Source of the DNA: an uncultured bacterium | Lineage (GTDB): Bacteria; Krumholzibacteriota; Krumholzibacteriia; LZORAL124-64-63 | Direction of reading: 5' to 3' | DNA: 64,000 nt | Assembly: GCA_903912525.1 (NCBI GenBank) | Contig: CAIWHK010000049.1 | Coordinates: 21,269-85,268, forward strand | Shown: one piece after another, positions 17,767 to 52,511 of the stretch | How the letters are laid out: every line of letters starts with the position of its first letter | Position numbering within the stretch: the first letter of the stretch is position 1 | The notes under the pieces: generated by a model | Database searches by the model: none | Seen by the model: the letters and a program-made list of their open reading frames with translations, nothing else | Told to the model about the DNA's origin: nothing | Made by a program: the position numbers and the translations under genes

Positions 17767-17907
17767 TTCGTGGTCAATGGGGCCCGGGGCGGGCCGGATT
17801 GACGGGCGAAAACGGGCTCCCTGCGGGCGGCCCATGACGGGGACCGAGGGCGGACGCCAACGGCGCCGCGGGAGCAGGGGCGGGACGTGAAGGGTGGGGC
17901 CGGAGGC

Positions 17908-18723
17908 ATGATGACCAAGCGCGCACACACGAGCAGCGGCCTGGCCGCGGTGTTGGCGTTGACGGCGCTGCTGGCGTCGTCGACGGCGCCGTCGCCTGCG
18001 CGGGCGCAGCTGAACGAGGAAGCGGTCGAGTACCAGGAGCACCTGGGCGGGATCGTGCCGGGCGACATCGTCCTGAAGGACGAGCAGGGGCTGCCCGTCA
18101 CCACGGGCGACCTCTTCGACAAGCCGACCATCCTCATGATGGTCTACTACGACTGCCCGGGCATCTGCACGCCGCTGCTGAACGAAGTCGCGGACATCCT
18201 GGGCAAGAGCCAGATGGACCCGACGAAGCAGCCGTTCCAGCTGGTCGCCGTCAGTATCAAGCCGACGGACACGCCCGAGACGGCGAAACAGAAGCGGGCC
18301 AACTACCTGAAGCTGGTGGGCCGGCCGCTGCCCGAGTCGACCTGGCGGTTCATGACCGCGGACCAGCCGTCGATCGACCGCATCACCGGCGCCGTCGGCT
18401 TCCGCTACAAGAGCGCCGGAAGCGAGTTCACGCATCCAGCCGGCCTGGTGATCCTGGCGCCCGACCGCAAGATCACGCGCTACCTGATAGGCAACGAGTT
18501 CCTGCCGTTCGACTTCCAGATGGGCATCTACGAGGCCTCGCGCGGGACGGTCATGCCGACCACCGCGAGGCTGATCAAGATGTGCTTCAGCTACGATCCG
18601 GAAGGCCGGACCTACGTCTTCAACATCATGCGGGTGACCGCGTTCGTGATGCTGACGACGCTGGTCGTCTTCGGTGCGTTCCTGTACTACACGACCCGCC
18701 GCAAGCGGCGCGGGGAGGGTTGA
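17908..18723 (+). CDS. sco1: SCO1/SenC copper chaperone for cytochrome c oxidase
   Basis: 'YYDCPGICTP' CxxxC thioredoxin-like motif; C-terminal TM anchor; immediately upstream of ctaD. Confidence 0.8.
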   Translation: MMTKRAHTSSGLAAVLALTALLASSTAPSPARAQLNEEAVEYQEHLGGIVPGDIVLKDEQGLPVTTGDLFDKPTILMMVYYDCPGICTPLLNEVADILGKSQMDPTKQPFQLVAVSIKPTDTPETAKQKRANYLKLVGRPLPESTWRFMTADQPSIDRITGAVGFRYKSAGSEFTHPAGLVILAPDRKITRYLIGNEFLPFDFQMGIYEASRGTVMPTTARLIKMCFSYDPEGRTYVFNIMRVTAFVMLTTLVVFGAFLYYTTRRKRRGEG

Positions 18724-18727
18724 TCCG

Positions 18728-20374
18728 ATGGCAGAATCGAAGACCGGGCCCGCCTGGACCGGCAACTACCTGCAGGACTACGGCAGCCGGCGGGGCCTGA
18801 TGGCCTGGCTCACGACGACCGACCACAAGCGCATCGGCCTGATGTACGCTGCGGCGATGTTCACGTTCTTCGCGGTGGCTGTCCTGCTGGGCCTGCTCAT
18901 CCGCCTGGAACTGATGAACCCCGGCATGCAGTACGTGACGCCTCGCGTGTACAACTCCCTGTTCACGCTGCACGGCGTCATCATGATCTTCCTGTTCATC
19001 GTCCCGGGCATCCCGGCGATCTTCGGGAACATCATGTTGCCGCTGCAGCTGGGTGCCGACGACGTCTCGTTCCCGAAGCTGAACCTGGCCTCGTGGTACG
19101 TCTACATCGCGGGGGCCATCCTGGCGCTGATGTCGCTCTTCGTGGGCGGCGGCGTGCCGGACACCGGCTGGACGTTCTATGCACCATACGCGCTGCGCTC
19201 GGGCAGCAACGTCTCGCTGGCCGTGTTTGCGGCGTTCGTGCTGGGCTTCAGCTCGATCATGACGGGCATGAACTTCATCACGACCATCCACCGGCTGCGC
19301 GCGCCCGGCATGGGCTTCTTCCGGATGCCGCTGTTCTGCTGGGGCCTGTACGCCACGTCGTGGATCCAGGTCATCGCCACGCCGGTCGTGGGCATCACGC
19401 TGCTGCTGGTGATCATGGAGCGTTCGCTGGGCATCGGGTTCTTCGACCCGGCGCGCGGCGGCGACCCGGTCCTGTACCAGCACCTGTTCTGGATCTACTC
19501 GCACCCGGTCGTGTACGTGATGATCCTGCCGGCGATGGGCGTCATCTCCGAGATCCTGCCGACGTTCGCCGGGCGCACCGTGTTCGGCTACAAGGCGATC
19601 GCGCTGTCGTCGATGGCCATCGCCATCGTCGGCTACATGGTGTGGGGCCACCACATGTTCACCGTGGGCATGAGCGACACGGCGCGGCGCGTGTTCAGCA
19701 TCCTGACGTTCCTGGTGGCCATCCCCACCGGCATCAAGGTCTTCAACTGGATGGCCACGCTCTACAAGGGCTCGATCCGCATCGAGCCGCCGCTGTTGTG
19801 GGCAGTCGGGTTCATCTTCCTGTTCTCGATCGGCGGCCTGACGGGCCTGGTGAACGGCGCCCTGTCGACCGACATCCACGTGCACGACACGGCGTTCGTG
19901 GTGGGCCACTTCCACTACACGATGTTCGGCGGCGCCGGCGTGGGGCTGTTCGCGGCCATGCACTACTGGTGGCCCAAGGTGTTCGGGCGCATGTACAATC
20001 GGAAGCGCGCGATCTGGGCCTGGGGCCTCTTCATGGTCGGCTTCAACCTGCTGTACTTCCCGATGCTGGTGATGGGCATCATGGGCATGCCGCGCCGTTA
20101 CGCCGACTACCTGCCCCAGTTCCATACGCCGCACCTGATTGCGACCATCGGCTCGTGGGTCATGGTCTCGGGCATCATCGTGATGCTGTGGAACCTGATC
20201 CGGGCGATCAGGCATGGCGCGCCGGCGCCGGCCAATCCCTGGGAGGGCACGACGCTGGAGTGGCAGACGACGTCGCCCCCGCCGCAGCTGAACTTCGCCG
20301 TGCCGCCGTCGGTGACGACCGGACCCTATGACCACACCGCGCTGCGCGCCGCCGCGGCGAAGGAGGCCCGTTGA
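18728..20374 (+). CDS. ctaD: cytochrome c oxidase subunit I
   Basis: 'WLTTTDHKRIGLMY', 'GHHMF', 'HFHY'; 12-TM heme-copper oxidase. Confidence 0.95.
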   Translation: MAESKTGPAWTGNYLQDYGSRRGLMAWLTTTDHKRIGLMYAAAMFTFFAVAVLLGLLIRLELMNPGMQYVTPRVYNSLFTLHGVIMIFLFIVPGIPAIFGNIMLPLQLGADDVSFPKLNLASWYVYIAGAILALMSLFVGGGVPDTGWTFYAPYALRSGSNVSLAVFAAFVLGFSSIMTGMNFITTIHRLRAPGMGFFRMPLFCWGLYATSWIQVIATPVVGITLLLVIMERSLGIGFFDPARGGDPVLYQHLFWIYSHPVVYVMILPAMGVISEILPTFAGRTVFGYKAIALSSMAIAIVGYMVWGHHMFTVGMSDTARRVFSILTFLVAIPTGIKVFNWMATLYKGSIRIEPPLLWAVGFIFLFSIGGLTGLVNGALSTDIHVHDTAFVVGHFHYTMFGGAGVGLFAAMHYWWPKVFGRMYNRKRAIWAWGLFMVGFNLLYFPMLVMGIMGMPRRYADYLPQFHTPHLIATIGSWVMVSGIIVMLWNLIRAIRHGAPAPANPWEGTTLEWQTTSPPPQLNFAVPPSVTTGPYDHTALRAAAAKEAR

Positions 20375-21027
20375 TGCGTTCCGAAAGCGGGACCCTTGGC
20401 GCGACGGCGGTATCGCCCGCCGCCGTCGCGCACCACGAGCATCGCGACGACATCGGCAGCAAGACCGGCATGTGGCTGTTCCTGTTCACGGAGCTGCTGC
20501 TGTTCGGCGGGCTGTTCATCGTCTATGCGGTCTACCGCCACAAGTACGGCACCGAGTTCCATGAGGCCGCCCACGAGCTGAACAAGGTCATGGGCGTGAC
20601 CAATACGTTTGTCCTGCTGACCAGCAGCCTGACGATGGTGCTGTCGGTGGGCGCGCTGCAGCGGGCGCGTGTGGCCGAGTCGCTGCGCTGGCTGGGCGCC
20701 ACGTTCGGGCTGGCCTGCTGCTTCCTGGTCATCAAGTTCTTCGAGTGGAGTGCCAAGCACCACCACGGCATCTGGCCCGGCGGCGAGCACCTGCACGCGA
20801 TGCCGCCCGGCGAGGGCATGTTCTTCAACCTGTACTTCATGATGACCGGGCTGCACGGCATCCACGTGCTGATCGGCATGGGCGTCATGGGTTCGATCGC
20901 GGCGCGCATCCGCTCGGGGCACGTGTCGGCCTCGCGCTACGCCGCCCTGGAGTTCACGGGGCTGTACTGGCACCTGGTCGACCTGGTCTGGATCTTCCTG
21001 CTGCCGCTGTTCTACCTGACCAACTGA
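20374..21027 (+). CDS. ctaE: cytochrome c oxidase subunit III
   Basis: 'MWLFLFTELLLFGGLF', 'YWHLVDLVWIFL'; TGATG overlap with ctaD; AGGAGG RBS. Confidence 0.9.
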   Translation: MRSESGTLGATAVSPAAVAHHEHRDDIGSKTGMWLFLFTELLLFGGLFIVYAVYRHKYGTEFHEAAHELNKVMGVTNTFVLLTSSLTMVLSVGALQRARVAESLRWLGATFGLACCFLVIKFFEWSAKHHHGIWPGGEHLHAMPPGEGMFFNLYFMMTGLHGIHVLIGMGVMGSIAARIRSGHVSASRYAALEFTGLYWHLVDLVWIFLLPLFYLTN

Positions 21028-21053
21028 GCGAACGGCGAGGGAAAGGGACGACG

Positions 21054-21401
21054 ATGCAAGATTCACACACGACGGGCGCCCACGCCCATCCCGCGCCGCA
21101 CGGCGGCGGCCACGGAGGCGACCATGCCGCGCATGCGCCTGTGGCGACCGGCACCTTCGTGTTGGTCTGGGTGGCCCTGCTGGTGCTGACGCTGGTCACC
21201 GTAGCCGCGTCGACCTGGTTTCCGGGCAAGGTCGGCATCGGGGTGGCCATGGTGGTCACGCCGATCAAGGCGGCGCTGATCCTCATGTGGTTCATGCACC
21301 TCAAGTACGAGGCCATGGTCTTCCGGACGATGTTCCTGTCCGCGATCGGGATCCTGGCCCTGGTCATGGGCCTGACGTTCTTCGACTATTCGTTCCTGTG
21401 A
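21054..21401 (+). CDS. coxD: cytochrome c oxidase subunit IV (caa3-type small subunit)
   Basis: About 115-aa 3-TM protein 'HGGGHGGDHAAHAP...WFMHLKYE'; GGGAAAGGGA RBS. The 20745 ORF is a frame artefact. Confidence 0.7.
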   Translation: MQDSHTTGAHAHPAPHGGGHGGDHAAHAPVATGTFVLVWVALLVLTLVTVAASTWFPGKVGIGVAMVVTPIKAALILMWFMHLKYEAMVFRTMFLSAIGILALVMGLTFFDYSFL

Positions 21402-21411
21402 GAGGGTGGGC

Positions 21412-22305
21412 ATGACGGGAGCTTCCAGTTATTCGGCGATGGTCGACAAGACCTTCTGGATGATCCTCGGTTCGTCGGTGATCATGCTCGTGGGCATCAC
21501 CGCCACCATGATCCTGTTCATGGTGAAGTACCGGCGGTCGCGCCATCCCGTCGCCAGTGACATCGAGGGCAGCGCCACGCTCGAAACGCTGTGGACCGTT
21601 CTGCCTACCGTCCTGGTGATGGTCATGTTCTACTACGGCTGGGCAGGCTTCAAGGTGATGCGCGAGACGCCCAAGGGCGCCATCCCCATCACCGTGCAGG
21701 CGCGCATGTGGTCGTGGTCGTTCAAGTACGAGAACGGCAAGCAGACGACCGACCTGTACGTGCCTGTGGGGCGGCCCGTGGCCGTGAACCTGGAGTCGGC
21801 GGACGTCATCCACAGCTTCTTCGTGCCGGCCTTCCGGGTGAAGGAAGACTGCATGCCCGGGCGCAAGAACCACGCCTGGTTCCAGGCCGAGCGCGAGGGC
21901 GTCTACGACCTCATGTGCGCCGAGTATTGCGGCGACAAGCACAGCGCGATGCTGGCGAAGGTCGTGGCGGTGCCGGCGGACACGTTCGACGTCTGGCTCG
22001 AGCGCGGCGGCGGGCGGCCCACGGGCGAGAAGCTGCTGAAGATCAAGGGCTGCGTGGCCTGCCACAGCAGCGACGGCACCAAGCTTGTCGGCCCCAGCTA
22101 CAAGGGCCTGTTCGGCAAGAAGGAACGCGTGATGACGAACGGCGTCGAGCGCGAGATCACGGTGGACGAGGAGTACATCCGCCGCTCGCTGCTGCAGCCC
22201 AAGGCCGACGTTGTGGTGGGCTACCAGCCGCAGATGCCCGAGATGGGCAACCAGCTGGACGAAGAGGATATCCAGCTGATCATCGACTACATCAAGAGGC
22301 AGTAG
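21412..22305 (+). CDS. ctaC: cytochrome c oxidase subunit II with fused C-terminal cytochrome c domain (caa3-type)
   Basis: CuA site 'H...CAEYCGDKHSAM'; C-terminal 'CVACHSSDG' heme c motif. Confidence 0.9.
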   Translation: MTGASSYSAMVDKTFWMILGSSVIMLVGITATMILFMVKYRRSRHPVASDIEGSATLETLWTVLPTVLVMVMFYYGWAGFKVMRETPKGAIPITVQARMWSWSFKYENGKQTTDLYVPVGRPVAVNLESADVIHSFFVPAFRVKEDCMPGRKNHAWFQAEREGVYDLMCAEYCGDKHSAMLAKVVAVPADTFDVWLERGGGRPTGEKLLKIKGCVACHSSDGTKLVGPSYKGLFGKKERVMTNGVEREITVDEEYIRRSLLQPKADVVVGYQPQMPEMGNQLDEEDIQLIIDYIKRQ

Positions 22306-22317
22306 GGGCGTGCGGCG

Positions 22318-23208
22318 TTGAAGACGTGGCTGGACCTGGTCAAGCTGAGGATCACCGTGGCGTCGACGGTGACGCTGGTGGTGGGCTACGTGATGGCGCG
22401 CGGGCGGTTCGACTGGCCGCTGCTGCCGCTGTCGCTGGGCATCCTGCTGCAGGCCTGCGGCGCCGCCGCGTTCAACCAGGTGCAGGACGCGAAGGTGGAC
22501 GCCCTGATGGCCCGCACCGCGTCGCGGCCGATCCCTTCGGGGCGCATCTCGCGCCGGAACGCGGGCATCTTCGCCGCCGCGCTGCTGGTGGCGGGCACCG
22601 CGCTGCTGTTCCTGTACTCGCCGTCGGCGGCCTGGCTCGGCGTCGGAGCGGCCGTCGTCTACAACCTCGTCTACACTCCGCTCAAGCGTGTGACGCCGTT
22701 CGCGGCCCTGCCGGGCGCGCTGATCGGCGCGCTGCCCCCGGCCATGGGCTGGACGGCGGCCGGCGGCTACCTGCAGGATCCGGCCATCCACCTGGTGTCG
22801 TTCTTCTTCTTTCTCTGGCAGATCCCGCATTTCTGGCTGCTGCTGCTGTTCTACGCGCAGGACTACCAGGGCGGCGGGCTGCCCTCGATGCTGGACCGGT
22901 TCGACCGGGTGCAGGTGCTGCGGATGACGTTCCTGTGGATCGCGGCGGTGAGCGCCGCGGCACTGCTGCTGCCGCTGGCGAACTTTTTCGCCCGCCCCGC
23001 ACTGGCCTACGTGCTCGCGGGCGCCGGCGCCCTGCTGGTGGTCCGCGCGGTGACGCTGCTGAAGCTGGCGGTGCCGGGCGTGACGCCGGGCGCGGCGTTG
23101 CAGCCGTTCCGCCGCGCCTGCCGGATGCGCTTCATGGAGATCAACACGTTCGCGCTGCTGGTCTGCGTGCTGCTGGTGGCGGACGCGCTGCTGCTGCCCG
23201 GTCGCTGA
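22318..23208 (+). CDS. ctaB: protoheme IX farnesyltransferase (heme O synthase)
   Basis: UbiA-fold: 'NQVQDAKVDALMARTASRPIPSGRIS', 'WQIPHFW'; TTG start inferred. Confidence 0.85.
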   Translation: MKTWLDLVKLRITVASTVTLVVGYVMARGRFDWPLLPLSLGILLQACGAAAFNQVQDAKVDALMARTASRPIPSGRISRRNAGIFAAALLVAGTALLFLYSPSAAWLGVGAAVVYNLVYTPLKRVTPFAALPGALIGALPPAMGWTAAGGYLQDPAIHLVSFFFFLWQIPHFWLLLLFYAQDYQGGGLPSMLDRFDRVQVLRMTFLWIAAVSAAALLLPLANFFARPALAYVLAGAGALLVVRAVTLLKLAVPGVTPGAALQPFRRACRMRFMEINTFALLVCVLLVADALLLPGR

Positions 23209-26765: not shown

Positions 26766-26929
26766 CCCGTCGTCGTCTTTCGATGTCAGGTCAGGCGGCG
26801 CCGGGGCGGGGTGCCTGCGCCGAAGGGAGATCGTAACATATCCGTGATAGGCTGTATATGGGGTCGGTAAAGATGTCTTTCCCCGGGTGCGGTTGACAGC
26901 GCCCGGGGGCGGGGCTACCGTGGCGATAA

Positions 26930-27018
26930 CCGTTGGGGGTGGCCGAACCGGCTGGACCGGGTTGGCCTGAGAAAGACCCTTGGAACCTGAACCGGATCAT
27001 GCCGGCGTAGGGAAACGG
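26930..27018 (+). ncRNA. TPP riboswitch (THI-box)
   Basis: ccgttGGGGTGgccgaaccggctggaccgggttggCCTGAGAaagACCCTTgGAACCTGAaCCGGatcatGCCGGCGTAGGGAAacgg: all hallmark THI-element blocks present, with a P1 closing pair ccgtt/aacgg. Confidence 0.85.
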
Positions 27019-27027
27019 GCCGCTTGC

Positions 27028-27062
27028 GGCGCCTTCCACGACATCGGGGGGCGCCATTTTTT
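27028..27062 (+). terminator. intrinsic terminator of the TPP riboswitch expression platform
   Basis: GGCGCC...GGGGGCGCC hairpin immediately followed by ATTTTTTG, between the aptamer and the TonB receptor ATG. Confidence 0.65.
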
Positions 27063-27108
27063 GTACGCGGTGACGTTCCCGCACCGGCCACCTCGAGTGG
27101 AGGCGGCC

Positions 27109-29433
27109 ATGCGAATCCCATCCATCCCGACCACCCTGCGTGCGGCGGCGGCGCTTGCCGGCCTCGTCGTCCTGGCCGCGGGACCGGCCCCGGCGCAGCC
27201 GTCGGCCGCGCCTGTCGCCGATTCCGTGCCCGTCGTCGTCGACACGACCGCCGTGCTGCCGGGCGAAGAGGCCGTCTATGCCGCGCCCGAGGTGGTGGTC
27301 ACCGCCTCGCGCTACGGGCAGGACGCGCGGCTGAACATCTCCAACGTCACGGCCGCCGAGCTGGCCCGTCGCGAACCCGACCAGGAACTGCCGATGCTCC
27401 TGCAGTCGCAGCCGGGCGTGTTCTCGTATTCGGACGCCGGCGGCGGGCTGGGCTACACGTACCTGAAGGTGCGGGGCTTCGACCAGCGGCGCGTCGGCGT
27501 GTTGCTGGACGGCATCCCGTTGAACGATCCCGAGGACCACCAGGTGTGGTGGGTCGACATGCCTGACCTGGCGGCCGACGTGCAGGACATCCAGCTGCAG
27601 CGCGGGGTGACGGGGTCGGTGGGCGGCATGACCGCCATCGGCGGCACCGTCGACGTGGCGACCACGCCGCCGGGCGAGCGTCCGGGCACGCGTATCGGGC
27701 TGGACGCCGGCAGCTACGGGTACCGGCGGCAGATGCTGGCCTGGGACAGCGGGCTGGTCGAGGGCGGCTGGGCCACGGCGATCCGCCTGTCGCGACAGGA
27801 GACCGACGGCTTCCGCGACCGTTCGGGGCACGAGGGCTGGGGCCTGTCGTGGACCGCGCGGCGGATCACCGCCACGACCATCGACCAGGTGGGCGTGCAG
27901 GCGGGACGCGAGTTGTCGCACCATGCGTGGGACGCGGTGCCCGAGTCGATCCTCGAGACCGATCGCACCGCGAACGTGGAGACGTACCACAACGCGGTCG
28001 ACGATTTCCGGCAGCCGCATTTCACGTGGCACCGCACGTGGCTGCTGGGCGACCGCGTGACCTTGGTCAGCCGTCTGTACCACGTGCGCGGCGACGGGTT
28101 CTACGAGAACTACAAGGCCGGCCAGACGGTGGAGACCTACGGGCTCGACCTGGTGCCCGGTGGTCCGGCGGCCGGTGATGACGTCGATCTCATCCGCCGC
28201 AAGTGGGTCAGCAAGCGGCACACCGGGTGGGTGCCGTCGCTGGAGTGGGACCAGGGCCGGGGCCGCCTGCTGGCGGGCGGCGACGCTTATGCGTTCCACT
28301 CGGACCACTGGGGCGAGGTGCTGTGGGCGCGGGGCCTGGCGCCCGATGCGTTCACGACGCCCTGGGTCTATCATCGGTACCAGGGCGACAAGAAGGCGTG
28401 GTCGCTGTACGCCGACGAGCGCTGGAACCTGGGCGGCGGCCTGCAGGCGACGGTGAACCTGCAGTACCAGCGCAAGCGCTACACGTTCGCGCAGGACGCG
28501 GTCGCCAATTTCCAGGGCGAGCGGCTGAACCGGTACACCGTCACCGACGGGTTCTTCAACCCGAAGGGCGCGCTGGATTGGGCGGTGCCCGGCGAGGTGG
28601 CCGGGGGCCGGGCGCTGGTCTACGCGAACGCCGGCATCAACCACCGCGAGCCCACCGACAGCGAGCTGTTCGACACCTGGACCGGCGGCGACGACCTGGG
28701 CGCCGAGCCGCTCTTCGGCTCGCGGCGCGCGGTGCCCGACGGCAACGGCGGCGTGGCGTACATCGAGTGGTCGGACCCGCTGGTGAAGCCCGAGCGCGTG
28801 GTGGACAAGGAGTTCGGCTTCGGCTGGCGCGGGCGGGGCCTGGCCTGGTCGCTGGGCGGGTACTGGATGGACTTCACGAACGAGATCGTGCCTTACGGCG
28901 GGGTCTCGGACGACGGCAGCGGCATCCGCGGCAACGCCGGCCGCACGCGGCACCGGGGGCTGGAGTTCAGCGCCCGGGCGCTGCTGGGCCCGTCGCACGT
29001 GGTGGCGGTCACCGCCTCGCGGTCGTGGGACGAGGCCGTCGAGTTCGCCTTCCACGATTGGGACGGCACGGTGTACGATTACGCGGGCAAGCCGCTGGCC
29101 CTGTTCCCCGAGCACCTGGCGATGGTGGTCTGGGACGGGCAGTGGGGCGAGGCCCTGCGCAGCCGGGTTCGCGTGCGCAGCACGGGGCGCCAGTGGCTGG
29201 ACAACTCGGGACTGGGAGATCGCACCATCGACCCCTGGACGACGCTCGACGCGTCGCTGTGGCTGGACCTGCGCAAGGCGGGGCTCATCCACGGCGGCGA
29301 GGTCTCGGTGTTCGCGCACCTGCGCAACCTGACCGGCGCCGAGTACGAGACCTGGGGTTACTGGTACCTGGAGAACTGGAAAACGCCGGCGGCAGGCCGC
29401 AACCTGGCCGTCGGGATCGATTGTGGGTTCTGA
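27109..29433 (+). CDS. TonB-dependent outer-membrane receptor (predicted thiamine-family uptake, riboswitch-controlled)
   Basis: Signal peptide; plug 'VVVTASRYGQDARLNISNVT...LLQSQPGVFSY...YLKVRGFDQRRVGVLLDGIPLNDPE'; C-terminal '...GIDCGF' with terminal Phe. Confidence 0.85.
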   Translation: MRIPSIPTTLRAAAALAGLVVLAAGPAPAQPSAAPVADSVPVVVDTTAVLPGEEAVYAAPEVVVTASRYGQDARLNISNVTAAELARREPDQELPMLLQSQPGVFSYSDAGGGLGYTYLKVRGFDQRRVGVLLDGIPLNDPEDHQVWWVDMPDLAADVQDIQLQRGVTGSVGGMTAIGGTVDVATTPPGERPGTRIGLDAGSYGYRRQMLAWDSGLVEGGWATAIRLSRQETDGFRDRSGHEGWGLSWTARRITATTIDQVGVQAGRELSHHAWDAVPESILETDRTANVETYHNAVDDFRQPHFTWHRTWLLGDRVTLVSRLYHVRGDGFYENYKAGQTVETYGLDLVPGGPAAGDDVDLIRRKWVSKRHTGWVPSLEWDQGRGRLLAGGDAYAFHSDHWGEVLWARGLAPDAFTTPWVYHRYQGDKKAWSLYADERWNLGGGLQATVNLQYQRKRYTFAQDAVANFQGERLNRYTVTDGFFNPKGALDWAVPGEVAGGRALVYANAGINHREPTDSELFDTWTGGDDLGAEPLFGSRRAVPDGNGGVAYIEWSDPLVKPERVVDKEFGFGWRGRGLAWSLGGYWMDFTNEIVPYGGVSDDGSGIRGNAGRTRHRGLEFSARALLGPSHVVAVTASRSWDEAVEFAFHDWDGTVYDYAGKPLALFPEHLAMVVWDGQWGEALRSRVRVRSTGRQWLDNSGLGDRTIDPWTTLDASLWLDLRKAGLIHGGEVSVFAHLRNLTGAEYETWGYWYLENWKTPAAGRNLAVGIDCGF

Positions 29434-30155
29434 TGCTGGATGACCGACAGGCGCTGGGCGGCGCGGGCTGCCCCTTCTTCACCAAGCGCGGGCCGCGGGC
29501 CGTGATCCTGTGCGATGGACCGCCGCCGTCGCCGGAGCAACTCGCGTGGTGGCTGACGGGCGCCGACCTTTTTGTTTGCACGGATGCCGCGGGCCATCCA
29601 TACGAGCACCTGCCGCGAATGCCTGATGTCGTCATCGGCGACTTCGACTCGTTGTCGGGGCGCGTGCTGGCCGGTCGCGGCGGGCCGCTGTTCCTGGAGG
29701 TCGACGACGCCTACACGACCGACAGCGAGAAGGCGCTGCTGTACGTGGCCGAGCAGGGCTACGAGGAGGCCGTGCTGCTGGGGGCCACCGGCTGGCGCCT
29801 GGACCACACGCTGTTCAACATCATGCTGCTCGAGCGGTTCAGCGACCGCCTGCGCCTGTGCGTGTCGGGCTACCTGGCCGACGGCGTCCGCGTGGGCGCG
29901 GGCGCGCGCGAGGCGTGGGACCTGCCCGCCGGCACGCGCTTCTCGCTGCTGCCCATGGGCGGCGAAGTGCGCGGCGTGACGACCGAGGGCGCCGCCTTCC
30001 CGCTGCTGAACGAGACGCTGGGCGCCTTTGGCCCGACGGCGATCAGCAACGTCGTGACGCTGTCGCCGCTGCTGCTGTCGGTGGGCAGCGGCTCGCTGCT
30101 GGCCCTGATCGACCGCGAGCCCGAGCCGCCGCGATCCGAACGCGGCCCCGAGTAG
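29433..30155 (+). CDS. thiamine pyrophosphokinase
   Basis: 'VILCDGPP', 'VIGDFDS', 'DTDSEKAL', 'LGATGWRLDHTLFNI' TPK motifs; ATG overlaps the TonB receptor TGA. Confidence 0.8.
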   Translation: MLDDRQALGGAGCPFFTKRGPRAVILCDGPPPSPEQLAWWLTGADLFVCTDAAGHPYEHLPRMPDVVIGDFDSLSGRVLAGRGGPLFLEVDDAYTTDSEKALLYVAEQGYEEAVLLGATGWRLDHTLFNIMLLERFSDRLRLCVSGYLADGVRVGAGAREAWDLPAGTRFSLLPMGGEVRGVTTEGAAFPLLNETLGAFGPTAISNVVTLSPLLLSVGSGSLLALIDREPEPPRSERGPE

Positions 30156-31559
30156 ATGGACGCCGGCCTGACGTCCTGGTGGGCCACGCTGGCCTATGTC
30201 CTCTACCTGCTCTACGCGGTCCTGCGCGTGCTGCGCAAGCCGGCCGGCGGCGCCGTCGACTACCTGGTCGCCGGCCGCCGCCTGACGCTGCCCGCCTTCG
30301 TGGCGACGCTGGTCTCGACGTTCTACGGCGGCATCCTGGGCGTGGGTGAGTACACCTGGCGCCACGGCGTCAGCAACTGGCTGGTCTTCGGCGTTCCCTA
30401 CTATCTGTATGCGGCCATCTTCGCCCTGCTGCTGGCCTCGCGCGCGCGGCGCAGCCGCATGCTGTCGATCCCCGACCTCTTCCAGAAGCGCTACGGGCGC
30501 GGCCCGGCCCTTATCGGCGCCGGCACGCTGTTCGTCATGACGGCGCCGGCCGCCTACGTCCTGATGCTGGGCGTGCTGGTGCGCATGGCCACCGGTTGGC
30601 CGCTGTGGCTGTCGGTCAGCCTGGGAGCGCTGTTGTCGGTCTCGTACGTGTTCCGCGGCGGGCTCAAGGCCGTCGTCGACACCGACAAGGTGCAGTTCGT
30701 GCTGATGTTCGTCGGCTTCCTGGTACTGGTGCCGGTTTGCGTCTTCAAGCTGGGCGGGTGGGGTTGGCTGAGCACGCACCTGCCGGCGACGCACCTGCGC
30801 TGGGACGGCGGGCTGGGCTGGCAGGCGGTGTTCGTCTGGTACTTCATCGCGATGTCGACGCTGGTCGAGCCCGCGTTCTTCCAGCGCTGCTACGCCGCCC
30901 GCGACGAGAAGGTGGCCCGCAACGGCATCCTGGTCTCGATCGCGTTCTGGATCCTGTTCGACTTCCTGACCACCAGCGCCGGCCTCTACGCCCGGGCGCT
31001 GATGCCCGACCTGGCCGACCCCGTGCAGGCCTTCCCGGCGCTGGCTGCGCGCGTGCTGCCGGGCTTCTGGCAGGGCGTCTTCACGGTGGGCATGCTGGCG
31101 ACGATCATGTCGACGATCGACAGCTACGCGTTCATCGCCGCGGTCACCCTGGGTCGCGACCTGGTCGGTCGCTGGCGGGGGTTCGACGACGAGCGCGCGC
31201 TGCGCTCGGCGCAGTGGAGCCTGCTGGTGACCGCGATCGTGGCCATCGTGATGGCGCTGGCGGCGGGCTCGGTGATCACCTTGTGGAAGGTGCTGGGCTC
31301 GGCCGGCACGCCCGTGCTGCTGCTGCCGCTGGCGCTGGCGCACACGCGGTGGCGCGTGGGCGGGCGGCGCGTGACGGTGTCGATGGCGGCGTCGGGCCTG
31401 GTGGCGGTGGCCTGGCTGGCGGCCGGTCACGGCCAGCCCTGGCTGGGTATCGAGGCGATCTTCCCGGGGCTGCTGGCCTCGGTGCTGGTGCTGGCGCCGG
31501 CCTGGCTGCCGGGCGGCGAGGCGCAACGGATGGCGGAACCGGAATGGGGAGAACGATGA
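30156..31559 (+). CDS. sodium:solute symporter (SSS) family transporter, ThiV-like candidate thiamine/precursor importer
   Basis: About 13-TM SSS fold; directly follows the TPK gene. Confidence 0.7.
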   Translation: MDAGLTSWWATLAYVLYLLYAVLRVLRKPAGGAVDYLVAGRRLTLPAFVATLVSTFYGGILGVGEYTWRHGVSNWLVFGVPYYLYAAIFALLLASRARRSRMLSIPDLFQKRYGRGPALIGAGTLFVMTAPAAYVLMLGVLVRMATGWPLWLSVSLGALLSVSYVFRGGLKAVVDTDKVQFVLMFVGFLVLVPVCVFKLGGWGWLSTHLPATHLRWDGGLGWQAVFVWYFIAMSTLVEPAFFQRCYAARDEKVARNGILVSIAFWILFDFLTTSAGLYARALMPDLADPVQAFPALAARVLPGFWQGVFTVGMLATIMSTIDSYAFIAAVTLGRDLVGRWRGFDDERALRSAQWSLLVTAIVAIVMALAAGSVITLWKVLGSAGTPVLLLPLALAHTRWRVGGRRVTVSMAASGLVAVAWLAAGHGQPWLGIEAIFPGLLASVLVLAPAWLPGGEAQRMAEPEWGER

Positions 31560-32098
31560 GCGGGATGTCTTCTGTGGAACTGACGCCGGGCTATCGCGGC
31601 GCCCTGCGCGCGCTGCTGCGCTTCGCCATCGCCATGGCCGTCGTCGGCCTGCTGACGGGCATCTCGTTCCAGGAGTCGGCGCGCAAGCTGCCGTTCCCGG
31701 CGGCGGGCGCGGGGCTGCGCCTGGAGTCTGTCATCAACCTGGCGCTGGTGCACGGCCACGTGTTCACGATGGGCGTGCTGTTGCCGCTGGCGCTGGCGGG
31801 CGCGCTGTTGATGGCGCGGCGCATCGGCGGCCGCGAGGTGGGCCCGCAGGCGCTGCGCTGGCTGCTGTGGGGCTACCTGCCCGCGGCGGCGGCCACCTCG
31901 GCGCTGCAACTGGTGAAGGGCTACCACTTCCTGCTGGCAGTGCGGCGCGGCGCGACCGACCTGGCCCAGGTCGACGCGGCGTTCCTGGGCGGGCACGGCG
32001 TCGCGCGCTACGTGGTGTACGGCGCCGTGCACGGGGCGTTGGGCCTATGCCTGGTCGTGTTCCTGGTGGCGTTGTGGCGGAGCCTGCCGAGGGATTGA
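31556..32098 (+). CDS. small integral membrane protein (4-5 TM), last gene of the riboswitch operon
   Basis: ATGA overlap with the SSS gene stop; hydrophobic 180-aa ORF. Confidence 0.45.
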   Translation: MSGMSSVELTPGYRGALRALLRFAIAMAVVGLLTGISFQESARKLPFPAAGAGLRLESVINLALVHGHVFTMGVLLPLALAGALLMARRIGGREVGPQALRWLLWGYLPAAAATSALQLVKGYHFLLAVRRGATDLAQVDAAFLGGHGVARYVVYGAVHGALGLCLVVFLVALWRSLPRD

Positions 32099-33592: not shown

Positions 33593-34999
<1,407 letters not shown>

Positions 35000-35333
35000 G
35001 GGGAGGCCCCTTCCAGTTGTATCGTGGGCGGCTTCAGCGTAGACGCCGGCAGACCGTTGGCTGATGGCGAGGGACCATCGACCACAGGACGTTTCCACTG
35101 TACTCCTGGCGAGGAGCGGGGATCCTACCCGGCGCCGGGGGGTGTTGCAAGCGGATTATCGTTAAGTATGGGTGTCGTTGTGATGGCGCCGGTCGGGTGC
35201 AAGTCGGGCGGGCCCGTCGACCCGGCCTGGGTCGACAATCTCCATAACCGTATGCTGAACAATGTATTGCGCAATCCTGGCCCGCCTGCAGGGCGACAAG
35301 GCCGTTCTACGCGCACCCGGGCCTATTAATTCA

Positions 35334-35418: not shown

Positions 35419-36225
35419 ATGTCCGACGCCTTCCTGAATCCCGACCACCCGTCCGTCGTCTTCGCCTGCCGGGGCGTGCGTGTCTTCGTCAAGGACGGGG
35501 ACACGGAGAAGCAGATCGTGCGCGGCGTCGACCTGACCGTCCGGCGCGGCGAGAAGCACGCGCTGATGGGCCCCAACGGCTCGGGCAAGTCCACGCTGGC
35601 GGCCGCCCTGATGGGCCACCCCAGCTACCGCGTCGAGGGCGACATCTGGCTGAACGGCGAGCGTATCGACACGCTCGAGCCGCACGAGCGCGCGCGCCGC
35701 GGCCTGTTCCTCAGCTTCCAGTACCCGGTGGCCGTGCCCGGCGTGACGGTGGCCAACTTCCTGCGCGCCTCGCTCGCAGCTCGCCGCGGGACCGAGATCC
35801 CGGTGCGCGCCTTCCGCCAGGAGCTGAACGCGGCGTTCGAGACGATGAGCATCGACCCCTCGTTCATCACGCGCTACCTGAACGACGGGTTCTCCGGCGG
35901 CGAGAAGAAGAAGCTGGAGATCCTGCAGATGCTGCTGCTCAAGCCGGCGTTCAGCCTGCTGGACGAGACCGACTCGGGCCTGGACATCGACGCGCTGAAG
36001 ATCGTGTCGGACGGCATCAACCTGGCCAGCGGGCCGGACAACGGACTGCTGCTGGTGACGCACTACCAGCGCATCCTGAACCACGTCCAGCCGGATGTCG
36101 TGCACGTGTTCATGAACGGACACCTCGTGCGGACCGGCGGCATGGAGCTCGTGACCGCGCTCGAGGAGCGGGGCTACGACTGGCTGGCTGAAGAGGCCGC
36201 CATTCCCGAAGGGAGCCGCGCATGA
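35419..36225 (+). CDS. sufC: Fe-S cluster assembly ATPase SufC
   Basis: Walker A 'GPNGSGKST', ABC signature, about 250 aa. Confidence 0.95.
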
Positions 36226-37694
36226 GCCACGAAGAGGAACTGGCCGGGGCCGCCAACGCCGTGGCCGATGCCCGCGCCGTCCGCAGCGCCGAACTGACCG
36301 CGCTCAACGACGACTATACGGCGAAGTACGGCTTCCACGATCCCGAGGACTACTTCCTGAAGGCCCCCAAGGGCTTGAACCACGAAGTAGTGGAGATGAT
36401 CTCGCGCAAGAAGAACGAACCGGACTGGATGCGGGCCGTCCGCCACGCGGCGCTCGACACGTTCCGCGCCAAGCCGATGCCGCGCTGGGGCGACACCGAG
36501 GGCCTGGACGGCATCGACTTCGAGAACATCCACTACTACATCAAGCCCAAGGGCGAGCAGGCCAGCGACTGGAACGACGTTCCCGACCAGATCAAGAAGA
36601 CGTTTGACCGCCTGGGCATTCCCGAGGCCGAGCGCAAGTTCCTGGCCGGCGTCACGGCGCAGTACGAGTCCGAGGTCGTCTACCACTCCATCCGCGAGGA
36701 CCTGACGAAGCTGGGTGTCCTCTTCATGGACATGGACTCGGCGCTGCGCGAGCATCCCGAGATCGTGCGGAAGTGGTTCGGGAAGATCATCCCGACGAAC
36801 GACAACAAGTTCTCGGCCCTGAACACCGCCGTGTGGTCGGGCGGCTCGTTCATCTACGTGCCCAAGGGCGTGAAGGTGGACATCCCGCTTCAGGCCTACT
36901 TCCGCATCAACGCCGAGAACATGGGCCAGTTCGAGCGCACGCTGATCATCGCCGACGAGGACAGCTCGGTGCACTACATCGAGGGCTGCACGGCGCCGAC
37001 GTACTCGTCGGACTCGCTGCACTCGGCCGTGGTGGAGCTGGTGGCGATGGATCGCGCGCATATCCGCTACACGACCATCCAGAACTGGTCGACCAACGTC
37101 TACAACCTGGTGACCAAGCGCGCCCACGCCCACACCGACGCGGTCGTCGAGTGGGTGGATGGAAACCTGGGCTCGAAGCTGACGATGAAGTACCCGGCCA
37201 TCGTGCTGCTGGGCGAGCGCGCGCACGGCGAGGTGCTGTCCATCGCGTTTGCCGGCAACGGCCAGCACCAGGACGCCGGCGCCAAGATGACCCACGCGGC
37301 GCCGAACACGACCAGCCGCATCGTCAGCAAGTCGATCAGCAAGGGCGAGGGCCGCAGCAGCTACCGCGGACTGGTCAAGGTCAACCGCGGCGCGCACGGC
37401 TGCAAGACGAGCGTCGAATGCGACGCGCTGCTGATCGGCGAGCACGCCGTGTCCGACACCTACCCGACGATGGACGTGGCCGAGTCCGACGTGCGCGTCG
37501 AGCACGAGGCCCGCGTGTCGAAGGTGGGCGAGGAGCAGCTGTTCTACCTGCAGAGCCGCGGCCTGGACCCGGACAAGGCGCGCCTGATGATCGTCAACGG
37601 CTTCATCGAGCCGTTCGTGAAGGAACTGCCGATGGAGTACGCCGTCGAGCTGAACCGGCTGATCGAGCTGGAGATGGAGGGTTCCGTTGGCTGA
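36222..37694 (+). CDS. sufB: Fe-S cluster assembly protein SufB
   Basis: About 490 aa; '[20 protein letters not shown]', 'QFERTLI'. Confidence 0.95.
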
Positions 37695-38970
37695 GACAAG
37701 CACTTCCGTGATCGCGTCGGCGCGGCCGGCGCTGGACGAAGCGTTGCTGAAGGCCGTGGCGGCGACCCTCGGTGGCGACGCCGCGCAGGTCTCGCGCCGG
37801 CTCGAGGCGCTGGCGCGCTACGAGACGGCCGCCGATCCCGACCGCGTGCGGCACCTGTGGCGCTTCACGAACCCTGCGTCGCTGCTGCCGGCTTCGGTGG
37901 CGGGCGCGGCCGCGTCCGGCCCCGTGCCGGCGCCCGCGGCACCGGTGGCCGGCGCGTCGGTCACGATCGACCTGTGGCCGGGACGGGCGCCCGCCGTGCA
38001 GACGGCCGAGGACCTGCCTGTCGGCGCGCTGACGTTCACGGCGGCGGACGAGCCCTTCCCCAGTGGCAAGGCCCTGGCGAGCGACCTGTTCGGCGCGCTG
38101 GGTGATGCCGCCTGGAATGCGGGCGTGGGCCTCAAGGTGGCCGACGGCGCCAAGCTGGCCGGGCCGATCCATGTGCGCATCCATGCCTCCGCGGCGGCGT
38201 CGTTGCCGCGTCTGCGGCTGGAGGTCGGTCGGAACGCCGAGGCGATGCTCGTCGAGCAGCACATCGGCGGCGGGCCGGACGTGTGCGTCGTGGGCCGCAC
38301 CGTGATCAGCGCCGCGGACGGCGCGCGCGTGCGCCACGCCGTGGTGCAGGTCTGGGAGCCGGGCACCAGCGGCCACCTTGCGGTGGAGACGCGGGCCGGC
38401 GCCGACGCCGACATCCTGACCGTCTGCGGCGTCTTCGGCGGCGACGACACCAAGCTGGAACTGGGCACGGACCTGGCCGGCGCCGGCGCCCACAGCGAGA
38501 TCATCGGCGTGGCGCTGGTGGCCGGGAAGCAGCATGCGGATGTGCACACCAGCCATCGCCACCTGGCTGCCCACACCAGCAGCCGCATCGACTACAAGGC
38601 CGTGGCTGGACAGCAGGCGCGGTCGACCTACACGGGCCTGATCCGCATCGAGGACCGCGCCACGCACTGCGAGGCGTACCAGGAGAACCGCAACCTGCTG
38701 CTGTCGTCGCGGGCCCGGGCCGACGCCATCCCCGAGCTGGAGATCCACAACCAGGAAGTCAGCTGCAGCCACGGCGCGACCATTGCGCCGGTGGATCCCG
38801 AGCAGTTGTTCTATCTTGGGAGCCGGGGCCTGTCGCCGCACGAGTCGATGGGCCTGGTCGTGCGCGGGTTCCTCGAGAACACGCTGGCCAGGCTGCCGGA
38901 CGACGCGCGGGCCATGGTGGAGTCGTTCACGGCCCCGCGGTTGGCGACGATCAGGGAAGGAACGGCATGA
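37687..38970 (+). CDS. sufD: Fe-S cluster assembly protein SufD
   Basis: SufB-paralog C-terminal β-helix; non-ATG start (TTG 37687 or GTG 37708). Confidence 0.85.
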
Positions 38971-40259
38971 TTCCGCGCGGCGATTTCCTGCGGGCCCCCG
39001 CCGGGGTCGAGCCCTGCGACGGCCAGGCAGGCGACTGCTCGCGCTGCGGTCGCATCTTCTCCGAGCGCTTCCCGCTGCTGGAGCGCCGGGTGAACGGACG
39101 CCCGCTGGTCTACCTGGACAGCGCAGCCACGACGCAGAAGCCCGGCGCGGTCATCGCCGCCGAGGCGCGCTACTACCGCGAGCACAACGCGAACGTGCAC
39201 CGCGGCATGCACACGCTGGGCGTCGAGGCGACGGACCTGTATGAAGAGTGCCGCTCGCGCGTCGGGCGCTTCCTGGGCGTGCCGGCCGATCGCGTCGTGG
39301 TCACGCGCGGTGCCACGTCGGCGCTGAACCTGGTGGCCGGCGGCCTGGGGCCGTCGCTGAAGCCGGGCGACGAGATCATCGTCACCGAGATGGAGCACCA
39401 CGCGAACCTGGTGCCGTGGATCGAGGTCGCGCGCCGCGAGGGCCTGGTGCTGCGGCACCTGCCGGTCACCGCGGGCGGCGAACTGGACCTGGAGCGGCTG
39501 CCGCAGCTGCTGACCGCGCGCACGCGCGTCGTGGCGCTGACGCACGTTTCCAACGTGCTGGGCACCATCAACCCGGTGGCCGAGGTCGCGGCCGCGGCGC
39601 GCCGGCGCGGGGCGCTGGTCGTCGTTGACGCCGCGCAGTCGGTGGGGCACCTGCCGTTCACGTTTGACGAGCTGGGCGCCGACTACCTGGTCTTCTCGGC
39701 CCACAAGGCCTACGGGCCGATGGGCCTGGGCTTCCTGGTGGGCGGGGCCGAGGCGCTGGAGCGCCTGCAGCCGGTGGAATTCGGCGGCGAGATGATCGAG
39801 ACCGTGACCATGGATTCGGCCACCTGGGCCGCGATCCCGCAGCGCTTCGAGGCGGGCACGCCGAACGTGGGCGCGGCGGCGGCCTTCCCGGCGGCGCTCG
39901 ATACCATCGACGAGGCCACGCTGCAGCGCCTGCGGCAGCACGAGATCTCGCTGACCGCCTATGCGCTCGAGCGCCTGGAGCGGATGGGCGGCCTGACCAT
40001 CTTCGGTCCGCGCGAGGCCGAGCGTCGCGGCGGCCTGGTCAGCTTCCACGACCCGATGGTGCACCCGCACGACATGGCGCAGCTGCTCGATTCGCTGGGC
40101 ATCGCCGTGCGCGCCGGGCACCACTGCGCGCAGCCGCTGCACCGCCGGCTGGGCGTCGTGGCGACGAGCCGCGCCTCGTTCGGGATGTACAACTCGCACG
40201 ACGACATCGACGCGCTGGTCGACGGCATCGGCTACGCAAGGAGCGTGTTCGGGGCATGA
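38967..40259 (+). CDS. sufS: cysteine desulfurase SufS (with a roughly 26-aa N-terminal extension carrying CDGQAGDCSRC)
   Basis: 'LVYLDSAATTQKP', 'SAHKAYGPMG', 'RAGHHCAQPL'; ATGA overlap with sufD. Confidence 0.9.
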   Translation: MIPRGDFLRAPAGVEPCDGQAGDCSRCGRIFSERFPLLERRVNGRPLVYLDSAATTQKPGAVIAAEARYYREHNANVHRGMHTLGVEATDLYEECRSRVGRFLGVPADRVVVTRGATSALNLVAGGLGPSLKPGDEIIVTEMEHHANLVPWIEVARREGLVLRHLPVTAGGELDLERLPQLLTARTRVVALTHVSNVLGTINPVAEVAAAARRRGALVVVDAAQSVGHLPFTFDELGADYLVFSAHKAYGPMGLGFLVGGAEALERLQPVEFGGEMIETVTMDSATWAAIPQRFEAGTPNVGAAAAFPAALDTIDEATLQRLRQHEISLTAYALERLERMGGLTIFGPREAERRGGLVSFHDPMVHPHDMAQLLDSLGIAVRAGHHCAQPLHRRLGVVATSRASFGMYNSHDDIDALVDGIGYARSVFGA

Positions 40260-40732
40260 ACGCCGGGATGGACGAACTCTACCGGGAAGTGATCCTGGAC
40301 CACCACCGCAGCCCGCGGGGGCGCGAGCCCCTGCCGGGCCCGGCCGACGCGCGCGCCGAGGGCAAGAATCCCTCGTGCGGCGACGAATTGACCCTGGAGC
40401 TGGCCTGTGCCGGCGGCGCCATCACCGACGCCCATGTGGAGTGCCGCGGCTGCGCCATCGCCACAGCCAGCAGCTCCATCCTGGCCGAGCTCGTGGCCGG
40501 CCGCACGCCCGAGCAGGCCCGCGCCCTGGCCGAGGCCTTCCGCACGGCCATGCACTCGCCCGACGGCGCGCTGGCCGACGAGCTGGATCCCGGCGACCTC
40601 GAGGTGCTGACCGGGGTCCGCAAGTTCCCGGCGCGCGTGAAGTGCGCGTTGCTGCCCTGGATCACGCTGCTTTCCGCGCTCGACGCGGAGGGCGAAGGCA
40701 AGCCTGCCGCACCTGCATCGACGGAGGCCTGA
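40256..40732 (+). CDS. sufU: SUF-system NifU/IscU-like sulfur-acceptor scaffold (SufU)
   Basis: 'NPSCGDELTLEL', 'VECRGCAIATASS', 'KCALLPW'. Confidence 0.85.
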   Translation: MNAGMDELYREVILDHHRSPRGREPLPGPADARAEGKNPSCGDELTLELACAGGAITDAHVECRGCAIATASSSILAELVAGRTPEQARALAEAFRTAMHSPDGALADELDPGDLEVLTGVRKFPARVKCALLPWITLLSALDAEGEGKPAAPASTEA

Positions 40733-49166: not shown

Positions 49167-49196
49167 GGTCGTCCGTCCTTACGCTCTGTCGTTCTA

Positions 49197-50234: not shown

Positions 50235-50239
50235 GCGCG

Positions 50240-52497: not shown

Positions 52498-52511
52498 TCC
52501 GGTCCGAAGGT

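Follow-up and report, generated by a model that had tools for sequence, protein, structure and literature searches.

In Krumholzibacteriota and allied candidate phyla, a TPP riboswitch heads a predicted thiamine uptake operon in which an SSS-family transporter takes the place of PnuT

A TPP riboswitch heads four genes in the 64-kb stretch of bacterial DNA analyzed here (hereinafter, the window). With an estimated probability of about 80%, these genes represent an operon for the uptake and trapping of thiamine that is controlled by the riboswitch, in which a PanF-like transporter of the sodium:solute symporter (SSS) family takes the place of PnuT, whereas the fourth gene is an insertion confined to a narrow subclade rather than a general partner of the transporter. 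This interpretation is supported by the conserved core of the locus, that is, the riboswitch followed by the genes for a TonB-dependent receptor (TBDR), thiamine pyrophosphokinase (TPK) and the SSS transporter. Under the proposed scheme, the receptor would carry thiamine over the outer membrane, the SSS transporter, which is probably Na+-coupled, would carry it over the inner membrane, and TPK would convert it in a single step to TPP, thus trapping it in the cell. If so, a likely role, namely inner-membrane import of thiamine, can be proposed for a clade of PanF-like SSS proteins that are publicly named only as generic sodium:solute symporters, and the receptor-transporter-kinase logic of Bacteroidetes extends, with a different inner-membrane carrier, to Krumholzibacteriota and several uncultured phyla. 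This operon logic could also aid the prediction of vitamin B1 dependence in such organisms from metagenomes.

Operon organization and conservation of the core

The operon consists of four co-directional, tightly packed genes that encode, in this order, the TBDR, TPK, the SSS transporter and a 180-aa membrane protein. As read from the sequence, the receptor and TPK genes overlap by 1 nt (TGATG), the TPK and SSS genes abut (TAG/ATG), and the SSS gene overlaps the last gene by 4 nt (ATGA); the same three junctions are present in the public gene calls of a relative (L147). All three junctions had been interpreted as translational coupling in the sequence-only reading of this DNA and are confirmed in the sequence, and the gene families named there (TonB receptor, TPK, SSS and small membrane protein) are correct; the overall arrangement, with a riboswitch and a terminator heading the four genes, was also read correctly.

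To place the locus in a broader context, 80 species-level SSS loci were compared, mainly from metagenome-assembled genomes (MAGs) of Krumholzibacteriota. The riboswitch, TBDR, TPK and SSS genes are colinear in 64 of the 80 genomes, and the TPK gene is located immediately upstream of the SSS gene in 65 of the 80 loci. In distant phyla (Zixiibacteriota, Eisenbacteria and an Ignavibacteriales MAG), the riboswitch heads only a TBDR-SSS pair, and none of thiD, thiM, thiE and tenA was found near these loci. The same four genes were not seen in the operon itself, and no thi biosynthesis genes were detected among the 30 ORFs scanned in the window. Neither was PnuT found in the 64 kb, and Pfam detects no member of the Pnu-type (NMN transporter) family among the four proteins of the operon. 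Searches of the literature yielded no paper in which a riboswitch, a symporter, a TonB-dependent protein and thiamine pyrophosphokinase occur together, nor any that connects thiamine with Krumholzibacteriota.

The riboswitch and the terminator

The aptamer (THI element, RF00059) occupies positions 26925-27030 of the forward strand. A complete THI-box aptamer had been proposed to start at position 26930; its presence and completeness are borne out by the covariance-model scan (cmscan), in which RF00059 is matched over its full length (model positions 1-105 of 105) with a score of 68.8 bits against a gathering score of 54.3 (E = 2e-11), and only the start is corrected, to 26925. By its score and full aptamer, the element belongs to the TPP riboswitch family, and RF00059 is the sole Rfam family that exceeds its gathering score in the window. 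The optional stem after CUGAGA is missing from the aptamer in the RF00059 alignment. In each of 12 relatives searched with Rfam, a homologous aptamer precedes the gene for the receptor, and a custom covariance model finds the aptamer at 67 of the 80 SSS loci; contig ends account for 11 of the 13 loci without a detected riboswitch. Upstream of the aptamer, no sigma-70-like promoter was identified by a scan with the consensus, which may not suit this phylum.

The expression platform is an intrinsic (Rho-independent) terminator identified by a pattern scan at positions 27028-27062 of the forward strand, in agreement with the hairpin and T6 described earlier: a G+C-rich hairpin, GGCGCCUUCC...GGGGGGCGCC (27028-27055; 10 pairs, 8 of them G-C), is directly followed by the U tract, ATTTTTTGTA (an A, then T6). 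Folded alone, the hairpin has a free energy of -20.7 kcal/mol, and it is retained in the minimum-energy fold of the whole leader, with or without P1 enforced. A candidate antiterminator (27010-27037, forward strand) would be formed if the 3' strand of the aptamer, GGGAAACGGGCCG, paired to the terminator's 5' arm, CGGCGCCUUCC; in isolation, this pairing (-12.1 kcal/mol) is much weaker than the terminator hairpin, which, like the persistence of the hairpin in the folds of the leader, speaks against the proposed switch. Of 42 related leaders, 37 could form the corresponding pairing, yet it is indistinguishable from that in composition-matched shuffles of such leaders (median z -0.5), so the antiterminator is retained here only as a candidate. 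We infer that, at low TPP, the 3' strand of the unliganded aptamer would capture the 5' arm of the terminator hairpin, and the resulting antiterminator would allow readthrough by RNA polymerase and synthesis of a polycistronic mRNA; at high TPP, the ligand would lock the aptamer, the 27028-27055 hairpin with its T6 would form, and transcription would halt ahead of the first gene.

The receptor, the kinase and the transporter

The first gene (27109-29433, forward strand) encodes a 774-aa TonB-dependent outer-membrane receptor with an N-terminal Plug domain (PF07715, 52.4 bits) and a C-terminal beta-barrel (PF00593, 97.8 bits). Its start codon, the ATG at 27109, lies 5 nt after a Shine-Dalgarno-like GGAGG (27099-27103, forward strand) that was read from the sequence. 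The N-terminal part resembles BtuB (TIGR01779, 75 bits) and siderophore receptors, with scores far under the equivalog cut-offs, and no relative was found among solved structures at E <= 1e-5. In the relatives, the receptor gene is always the first after the riboswitch; from this position, in the window and in the 67 related loci with a detected aptamer, thiamine is predicted to be the substrate.

The second gene (29433-30155, forward strand) encodes a TPK of 240 aa, which scores above the NCBIfam cut-off of the TIGR01378 equivalog (92.1 against 76.4 bits) and above the thresholds of both Pfam domains, PF04263 (62.3 bits) and PF04265 (28.8 bits). Its best solved relative is 2omk_A (66.8 bits), which we take to be the TPK of B. 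thetaiotaomicron. The substrate of TPK is intact thiamine.

The third gene (30156-31559, forward strand) encodes the 467-aa predicted inner-membrane thiamine transporter, which matches PF00474 with 100.3 bits. Residues S319/T320 and D177 align with S340/T341 and D187 of PutP, which are the Na+-site residues according to the literature; together with the PF00474 match, the conservation of these side chains points to a sodium:solute symporter that is probably coupled to Na+. The best named NCBIfam match is PanF (TIGR02119), but the score, 75.6 bits, is far under the cut-off of 328, and identity with the PanF pantothenate symporter was rejected. In BLAST comparisons, the protein scores 74 bits with E. 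coli PanF and 51 bits (21% identity) with the ThiV protein of SAR11, whereas SAR11 ThiV scores about 150 bits with the SSSP protein of Phaeodactylum (ThiV and SSSP sequences from the supplement of PMC11452348). With a score lower than that obtained for PanF, orthology with SAR11_0811 ThiV/SSSP is ruled out.

The fourth gene: family, fold and distribution

The fourth gene (31556-32098, forward strand), a lineage-specific addition to the operon, encodes a His-rich, 180-aa membrane protein with four helices. Its match to DUF2871 (PF11070) is weak, 23.7 bits, under the Pfam threshold of 27.4; similarly weak matches are found for 22 of the 23 members of its family (best E = 1.1e-6), some database homologs carry a precomputed DUF2871 annotation, and, in the literature searched, this domain is mentioned in five papers, always incidentally. 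The predicted fold resembles the four-helix unit of subunit I of heme-copper oxidases and NO-reductases, without a significant sequence link to COX1: the family gives E = 0.036 in the Pfam comparison, and an hhalign probability of 0.2% with the COX1 protein that is itself encoded in the window. Membership in the oxidase subunit I family was accordingly rejected. A Foldseek search of the PDB with the model of the protein retrieved only generic helical bundles, none of them significant (E > 0.01), and the family profile run against PDB sequences gave only a chance match to PsaK (E = 0.72). An exhaustive profile search recovered only 117 clusters, nearly all of them in the size range of 165-190 aa, and did not retrieve proteins as long as an oxidase that align at the N-terminus; two fusion proteins of about 420 aa (P0277 and P0292) contain no additional Pfam domain. 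As a rare protein whose four helices stand alone in the shape of one unit of oxidase subunit I, it may be of interest for studies on the origin of these oxidases and reductases.

Among the 74 informative genomes, that is, those with enough sequence downstream of the SSS gene to tell, only three, all of them the closest relatives, have the 180-aa gene after the SSS gene, and the other 71 lack it there. The sister genomes L015 and L065 have identical flanking synteny without this gene, and the comparison reveals a clean indel of about 590 bp. Elsewhere, 41 of 42 homologs do not adjoin an SSS gene, and two MAGs hold both genes unlinked, with the homolog about 780 kb away from the operon (L062) or on a different contig (JAWKQQ). 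The stand-alone copies have no recurring neighbours. The 180-aa gene is thus a gain of a single narrow subclade, in which it came to lie between the SSS gene and an MFS gene of convergent orientation; it is a recent add-on to the operon and not a general partner of the SSS transporter. Within the subclade, given the 4-nt overlap, it would be co-transcribed with the SSS gene.

Alternative interpretations

The sequence-only reading had suggested that the 180-aa protein could be an accessory subunit of the SSS transporter. In this role, the protein would be required for the transport of thiamine or would modulate it. The overlap with the SSS gene, shared with L147, and the intactness of the gene, in which every family-invariant residue is kept, are compatible with this role, and small membrane partners are indeed part of some SSS systems: ActP-YjcH (DUF485), PanF-YhdT (DUF997), and the large and small subunits of the VC_2705 type. 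Such partners are short, roughly two-helix proteins that are usually encoded upstream of the transporter and are co-conserved with it. As in these systems, the gene for the small membrane protein of the window is tightly coupled to the SSS gene; in contrast to them, the protein has four helices, is encoded downstream and is not co-conserved, and profile searches found no match to the YjcH/DUF485, YhdT/DUF997 or VC_2705-type families, nor any above-threshold match to other membrane-protein families. The predicted fold, too, is that of an oxidase subunit I module rather than of a known transporter subunit. Across lineages, the gene for an accessory subunit is expected to occur together with, and next to, that of its transporter; adjacency in only three of 74 genomes, together with the solitary and unlinked homologs described above, runs counter to this role, which we consider highly improbable. 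A start/stop overlap, however tight, is not evidence of functional partnership; in this operon, the gene with the overlap was inserted recently. There is also a slim chance that the protein is not a passive hitch-hiker and has been recruited into the TPP regulon of the subclade for a thiamine-related function, perhaps as a membrane enzyme that depends on heme or a metal and has a thiamine vitamer as its substrate, or as a lineage-specific modulator of the transporter.

With regard to the substrate, the SSS protein might import a precursor or breakdown product of thiamine, such as HMP, instead of intact thiamine. The conserved partner of the transporter, however, is TPK, which acts on intact thiamine, and thiD, thiE, thiM and tenA are seen neither in the operon nor in the loci of distant relatives. 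In favor of HMP, SAR11 ThiV, which also belongs to the SSS family and is preceded by a TPP riboswitch, has been linked to HMP uptake (PMC11452348), and it shares with the protein of the window and with eukaryotic SSSP an STxD motif (D322) that PanF and PutP lack; nevertheless, the SSS protein is not an ortholog of ThiV, given the 51 bits against the approximately 150 bits between SAR11 ThiV and Phaeodactylum SSSP. We regard HMP import as improbable, and intact thiamine as the likely substrate, given that it is TPK and a TonB receptor, not HMP-salvage genes, that accompany the transporter. The mode of control calls for similar caution: the riboswitch-linked transport operons of B. thetaiotaomicron show little transcriptional response to thiamine (PMC5613172), so termination control cannot be assumed by analogy, and 17 of 69 related leaders have no hairpin and T-run detectable with the criteria used here, as would be expected if the riboswitch acted mainly through translation or mRNA stability. 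Against such control, the aptamer of the window is immediately followed by a strong terminator of the canonical type (10 bp plus T6), and the predicted folds do not obviously sequester the GGAGG, which lies about 40 nt past the terminator. Moreover, a hairpin and T-run immediately follow the aptamer in 52 of the 69 leaders, with stem sequences that vary while the pairing is kept. Control mainly at the level of translation or stability appears unlikely, and TPP-dependent termination remains the preferred model.

Comparison with known thiamine systems

The operon represents a variation on an uptake system that is already known, the OMthi-pnuT-tnr3 locus of Bacteroides, in which a TPP riboswitch, a TonB receptor, an inner-membrane transporter and TPK form a single operon in most Bacteroidetes genomes (PMC5613172). 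The parallel, which had been drawn from the sequence with an SSS protein in the place of PnuT, is apt: the same functions are headed by a TPP riboswitch, and no PnuT domain is present in the operon. The differences are in the inner-membrane transporter, which is a 467-aa SSS symporter rather than PnuT, in the gene order, which is receptor-kinase-transporter, and in the hosts, which are Krumholzibacteriota and allied candidate phyla. With regard to the receptor, THI-regulated, BtuB-like outer-membrane receptors are known as Omr1 or omr (PMC2211319, PMC10881298), and the TonB receptor of the window likewise lies directly downstream of a TPP riboswitch and has a BtuB-like N-terminus. The transporter had been called "ThiV-like", which holds in one of two senses. 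In its original, operational meaning (Rodionov 2002, as cited in PMC2211319), ThiV is a THI-regulated PanF homolog, and the SSS protein fits this meaning because it is PanF-like; it does not fit as an ortholog of SAR11 ThiV. No public source names any homolog of the SSS protein ThiV. Since the name spans SSS proteins that are not orthologous and probably differ in their substrates, annotation by it needs care. SAR11_0811 (PMC11452348) is likewise an SSS protein, homologous to PanF and located behind a TPP riboswitch, and shares the STxD motif, but the two are only distantly similar, and the partners of the transporter of the window are TPK and a TonB receptor instead of HMP-salvage genes.

Riboswitch, terminator and operon genes

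A gathering-threshold scan of both strands of all 64 kb detected a single Rfam family, the TPP riboswitch (RF00059), whose aptamer (26925-27030, forward strand) covers the whole model and scores 68.8 bits against a threshold of 54.3 (E = 2e-11), so that the complete THI-box aptamer proposed in the sequence-only reading passed the covariance-model check. The hairpin and T-tract that this reading had placed after the aptamer were recovered by a pattern scan at 27028-27055 (forward strand), where a 10-bp stem with 8 G-C pairs, GGCGCCUUCC/GGGGGGCGCC, precedes ATTTTTTGTA. This intrinsic terminator is the only terminator-like site that the scan found on the forward strand of the region; folded alone, the hairpin yields -20.7 kcal/mol. 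The motif GGAGG is located 5 nt upstream of the receptor start codon (ATG at 27109).

Downstream of the riboswitch and terminator are four genes, all on the forward strand, encoding a TonB-dependent receptor (TBDR) with plug and barrel domains (27109-29433), thiamine pyrophosphokinase (TPK; 29433-30155), which scores 92.1 bits with TIGR01378 against a cut-off of 76.4 and passes for both Pfam domains, a sodium:solute symporter (SSS) family transporter (30156-31559; PF00474, 100 bits), and a 180-aa membrane protein (31556-32098) with a match to DUF2871 (23.7 bits) that falls under the threshold of 27.4. The three gene junctions, TGATG, TAG/ATG and ATGA, were described correctly from the sequence and are identical in the public gene calls of a relative, L147. 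A convergent gene for an EntS-like MFS protein, 16 bp downstream, marks the end of the unit.

No thiamine biosynthesis genes were detected among the 30 ORFs scanned in the window. The neighbours include a sulfatase, FGE and three clusters, namely genes for a heme-copper oxidase about 4 kb upstream of the operon (SCO1, COX1, COX3, a COX2-cytochrome c fusion and a prenyltransferase of the UbiA family, probably heme O synthase; 17887-23208, forward strand), SUF iron-sulfur assembly genes (SufC, SufB, SufD and NifU-like; 35419-40732, forward strand) and heme biosynthesis genes (HemN, HemE, HemB and HemC; 47790-54286, reverse strand). The uroporphyrinogen decarboxylase gene of the latter cluster (hemE; 49197-50453, reverse strand) is split by an in-frame TAG (49902-49904); the URO-D profile matches the halves on both sides, in one frame, and candidate explanations are a pseudogene, an assembly error or read-through.

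Conservation of the riboswitch-TBDR-TPK-SSS core

Homologs of the SSS protein are plentiful in metagenomes, including Krumholzibacteriota, Gemmatimonadales and unclassified MAGs, and are annotated there as no more than generic sodium:solute symporters. One genome per species was scanned, and the 80 loci kept were searched by tblastn with the four proteins of the window. The TBDR, TPK and SSS genes are colinear in 64 of the 80 loci, and TPK is immediately 5' of the SSS gene in 65, including all 63 with SSS identity of at least 60%. The riboswitch was found by Rfam upstream of the receptor in each of the 12 loci tested, and a covariance model built from these 12 aptamers detected it in 67 of the 80; in 11 of the 13 loci without a hit, the contig ends at the receptor or SSS gene. 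Riboswitch, receptor and kinase are all absent within 10 kb of the SSS gene only in L070 and L077, MAGs labelled Cytophagia with a 52% identical SSS homolog; the thiamine linkage need not hold for every member of this clade.

The riboswitch is retained in distant phyla in which the SSS protein is 49-57% identical (Zixiibacteriota, KSB1, Eisenbacteria and an Ignavibacteriales MAG). Some of these lineages, Eisenbacteria among them, have the order riboswitch-SSS-TBDR (L078, 1723-5593; L080, 9681-13683; L086, 483-2818), with no TPK detected near these three loci. In five distant loci examined (L072, L076, L078, L080, L082), the regulated unit consists of the two transporters alone, with no thiD, thiM, thiE or tenA downstream. 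Elsewhere (L068, L069, L071), a riboswitch-TBDR-TPK unit is on the strand opposite the SSS gene. Among 69 related leaders, 52 have a hairpin with a T-run after the aptamer, and the stems vary in sequence while pairing is kept (GGCGCC, GGCGUC/GACGCC, CGGCACC/GGUGCCG, GCGACGC/GCGUCGC, ACCGGCC/GGCCGGU).

Many operon-bearing MAGs are labelled "uncultured Fibrobacteraceae bacterium" (L019, L028-L031, L034, L038, L041, L045 and others). Their SSS, TPK and receptor are as similar to those of the window as the proteins of Krumholzibacteriia-labelled MAGs, and the labels look unreliable.

The SSS transporter and its likely substrate

The SSS protein is PanF-like, yet scores 75.6 bits against the PanF equivalog cut-off of 328. 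It was rejected as an ortholog of SAR11 ThiV, which it matches with 51 bits (21% identity), compared to 74 bits for PanF; SAR11 ThiV and the Phaeodactylum SSSP match each other at about 150 bits. The protein does qualify as thiV in the first, operational sense of the name, which PMC2211319 gives as a THI-regulated panF homolog. Among solved structures, the choline transporter CHT1 and the multivitamin transporter SMVT come closest, both as weak matches, and at the Na+ site the side chains line up with those of PutP. Beside the Na+-site Ser/Thr, the window protein shares with SAR11 ThiV and the diatom SSSP an STxD motif (D322) whose Asp is missing in PanF, PutP and SiaT; judging from these alignments, this Asp may be a common feature of SSS proteins that carry thiamine or HMP. 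TPK acts on intact thiamine. Because this kinase is the constant partner of the SSS gene, and no precursor-salvage genes accompany it, thiamine is most likely the substrate.

The fourth gene is a recent addition to the operon

The sequence-only reading suggested the 180-aa protein as a possible accessory subunit of the SSS transporter, which would have made the operon remarkable; the distribution of the gene does not support this role. Of the 74 SSS loci whose downstream sequence extends for at least 600 bp, 71 lack it, and it is present only in L007, L008 and L009, the closest relatives (SSS 81-84% identical); L147 is an additional locus with the gene in the operon. Conversely, among 59 metagenome loci anchored on the 180-aa family, 42 have at least 300 bp upstream, and 41 of these lack an upstream SSS gene. 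The two are unlinked even when they coexist: in the L062 MAG, the homolog P0150 (1.417-1.430 Mb) and the thiamine operon (2.194-2.215 Mb) are far apart on the same contig (contig_7410), and in MAG JAWKQQ they are on separate contigs. No recurring neighbours of the stand-alone copies were found among the loci examined.

Two loci with SSS proteins 77-78% identical (L015, L065) share the flanks of the window (sulfatase, FGE, riboswitch, TBDR-TPK-SSS, convergent MFS, SufC, SufB). Here the SSS gene directly abuts the MFS gene, and the alignment with the window contains a single clean gap of about 590 bp; the 180-aa gene is missing in more distant outgroups as well. The parsimonious reading is one insertion in the subclade with SSS identity of at least about 80%; the fourth gene joined the operon recently and is no partner of the SSS transporter. 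Another lineage-specific indel next to the operon is the gene for a subtilisin-like S8 peptidase (33593-35098, reverse strand), which separates the MFS gene from sufC in the window and is missing from this position in L008, L015 and L065, whose synteny otherwise agrees.

The 180-aa family is small, comprising 117 clusters at 50% identity out of 1.84 billion representatives, and its members almost all have a length of 165-190 aa. Conservation is strong, with the motifs QES..KL, LVHGHxF, KGYxxLL and WRSL and invariant His66, His68 and His159. The AlphaFold2 model is a confident four-helix membrane bundle (pLDDT 89.8), for which Foldseek returned no significant match; the sequence link of the family to oxidase subunit I is likewise not significant. 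As modelled, the protein resembles in shape a single four-helix unit of oxidase subunit I, encoded as a module of its own, in which the conserved histidines may form a cofactor site. Two members of about 420 aa (P0277, P0292) contain an insertion of about 100 residues between helices 1 and 2 and a C-terminal membrane extension, with no further Pfam domain.

Proposed mechanism and comparison with known systems

At low TPP, the 3' strand of the aptamer (GGGAAACGGG) would pair with the 5' arm of the terminator, and the operon would be transcribed; at high TPP, the terminator would form. This candidate antiterminator pairing yields -12.1 kcal/mol; 37 of 42 leaders allow it, but it is no better than in shuffles. 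The receptor would then carry thiamine across the outer membrane and the SSS protein across the inner membrane, and TPK would trap it by conversion to TPP. Caution comes from Bacteroides thetaiotaomicron, where transcripts of equivalent transport operons change little with thiamine (PMC5613172).

TPP regulons were known to include SSS transporters as early as 2002 (Rodionov 2002, as cited in PMC2211319), and the operon, useful for annotation, is unsurprising to a specialist; our literature search found no paper on the riboswitch-TBDR-TPK-SSS arrangement or on thiamine uptake in Krumholzibacteriota. The closest known system is OMthi-pnuT-tnr3 of Bacteroides (PMC5613172), which combines the same three functions under the same riboswitch class, whereas the inner-membrane carrier of the window locus comes from a different family.
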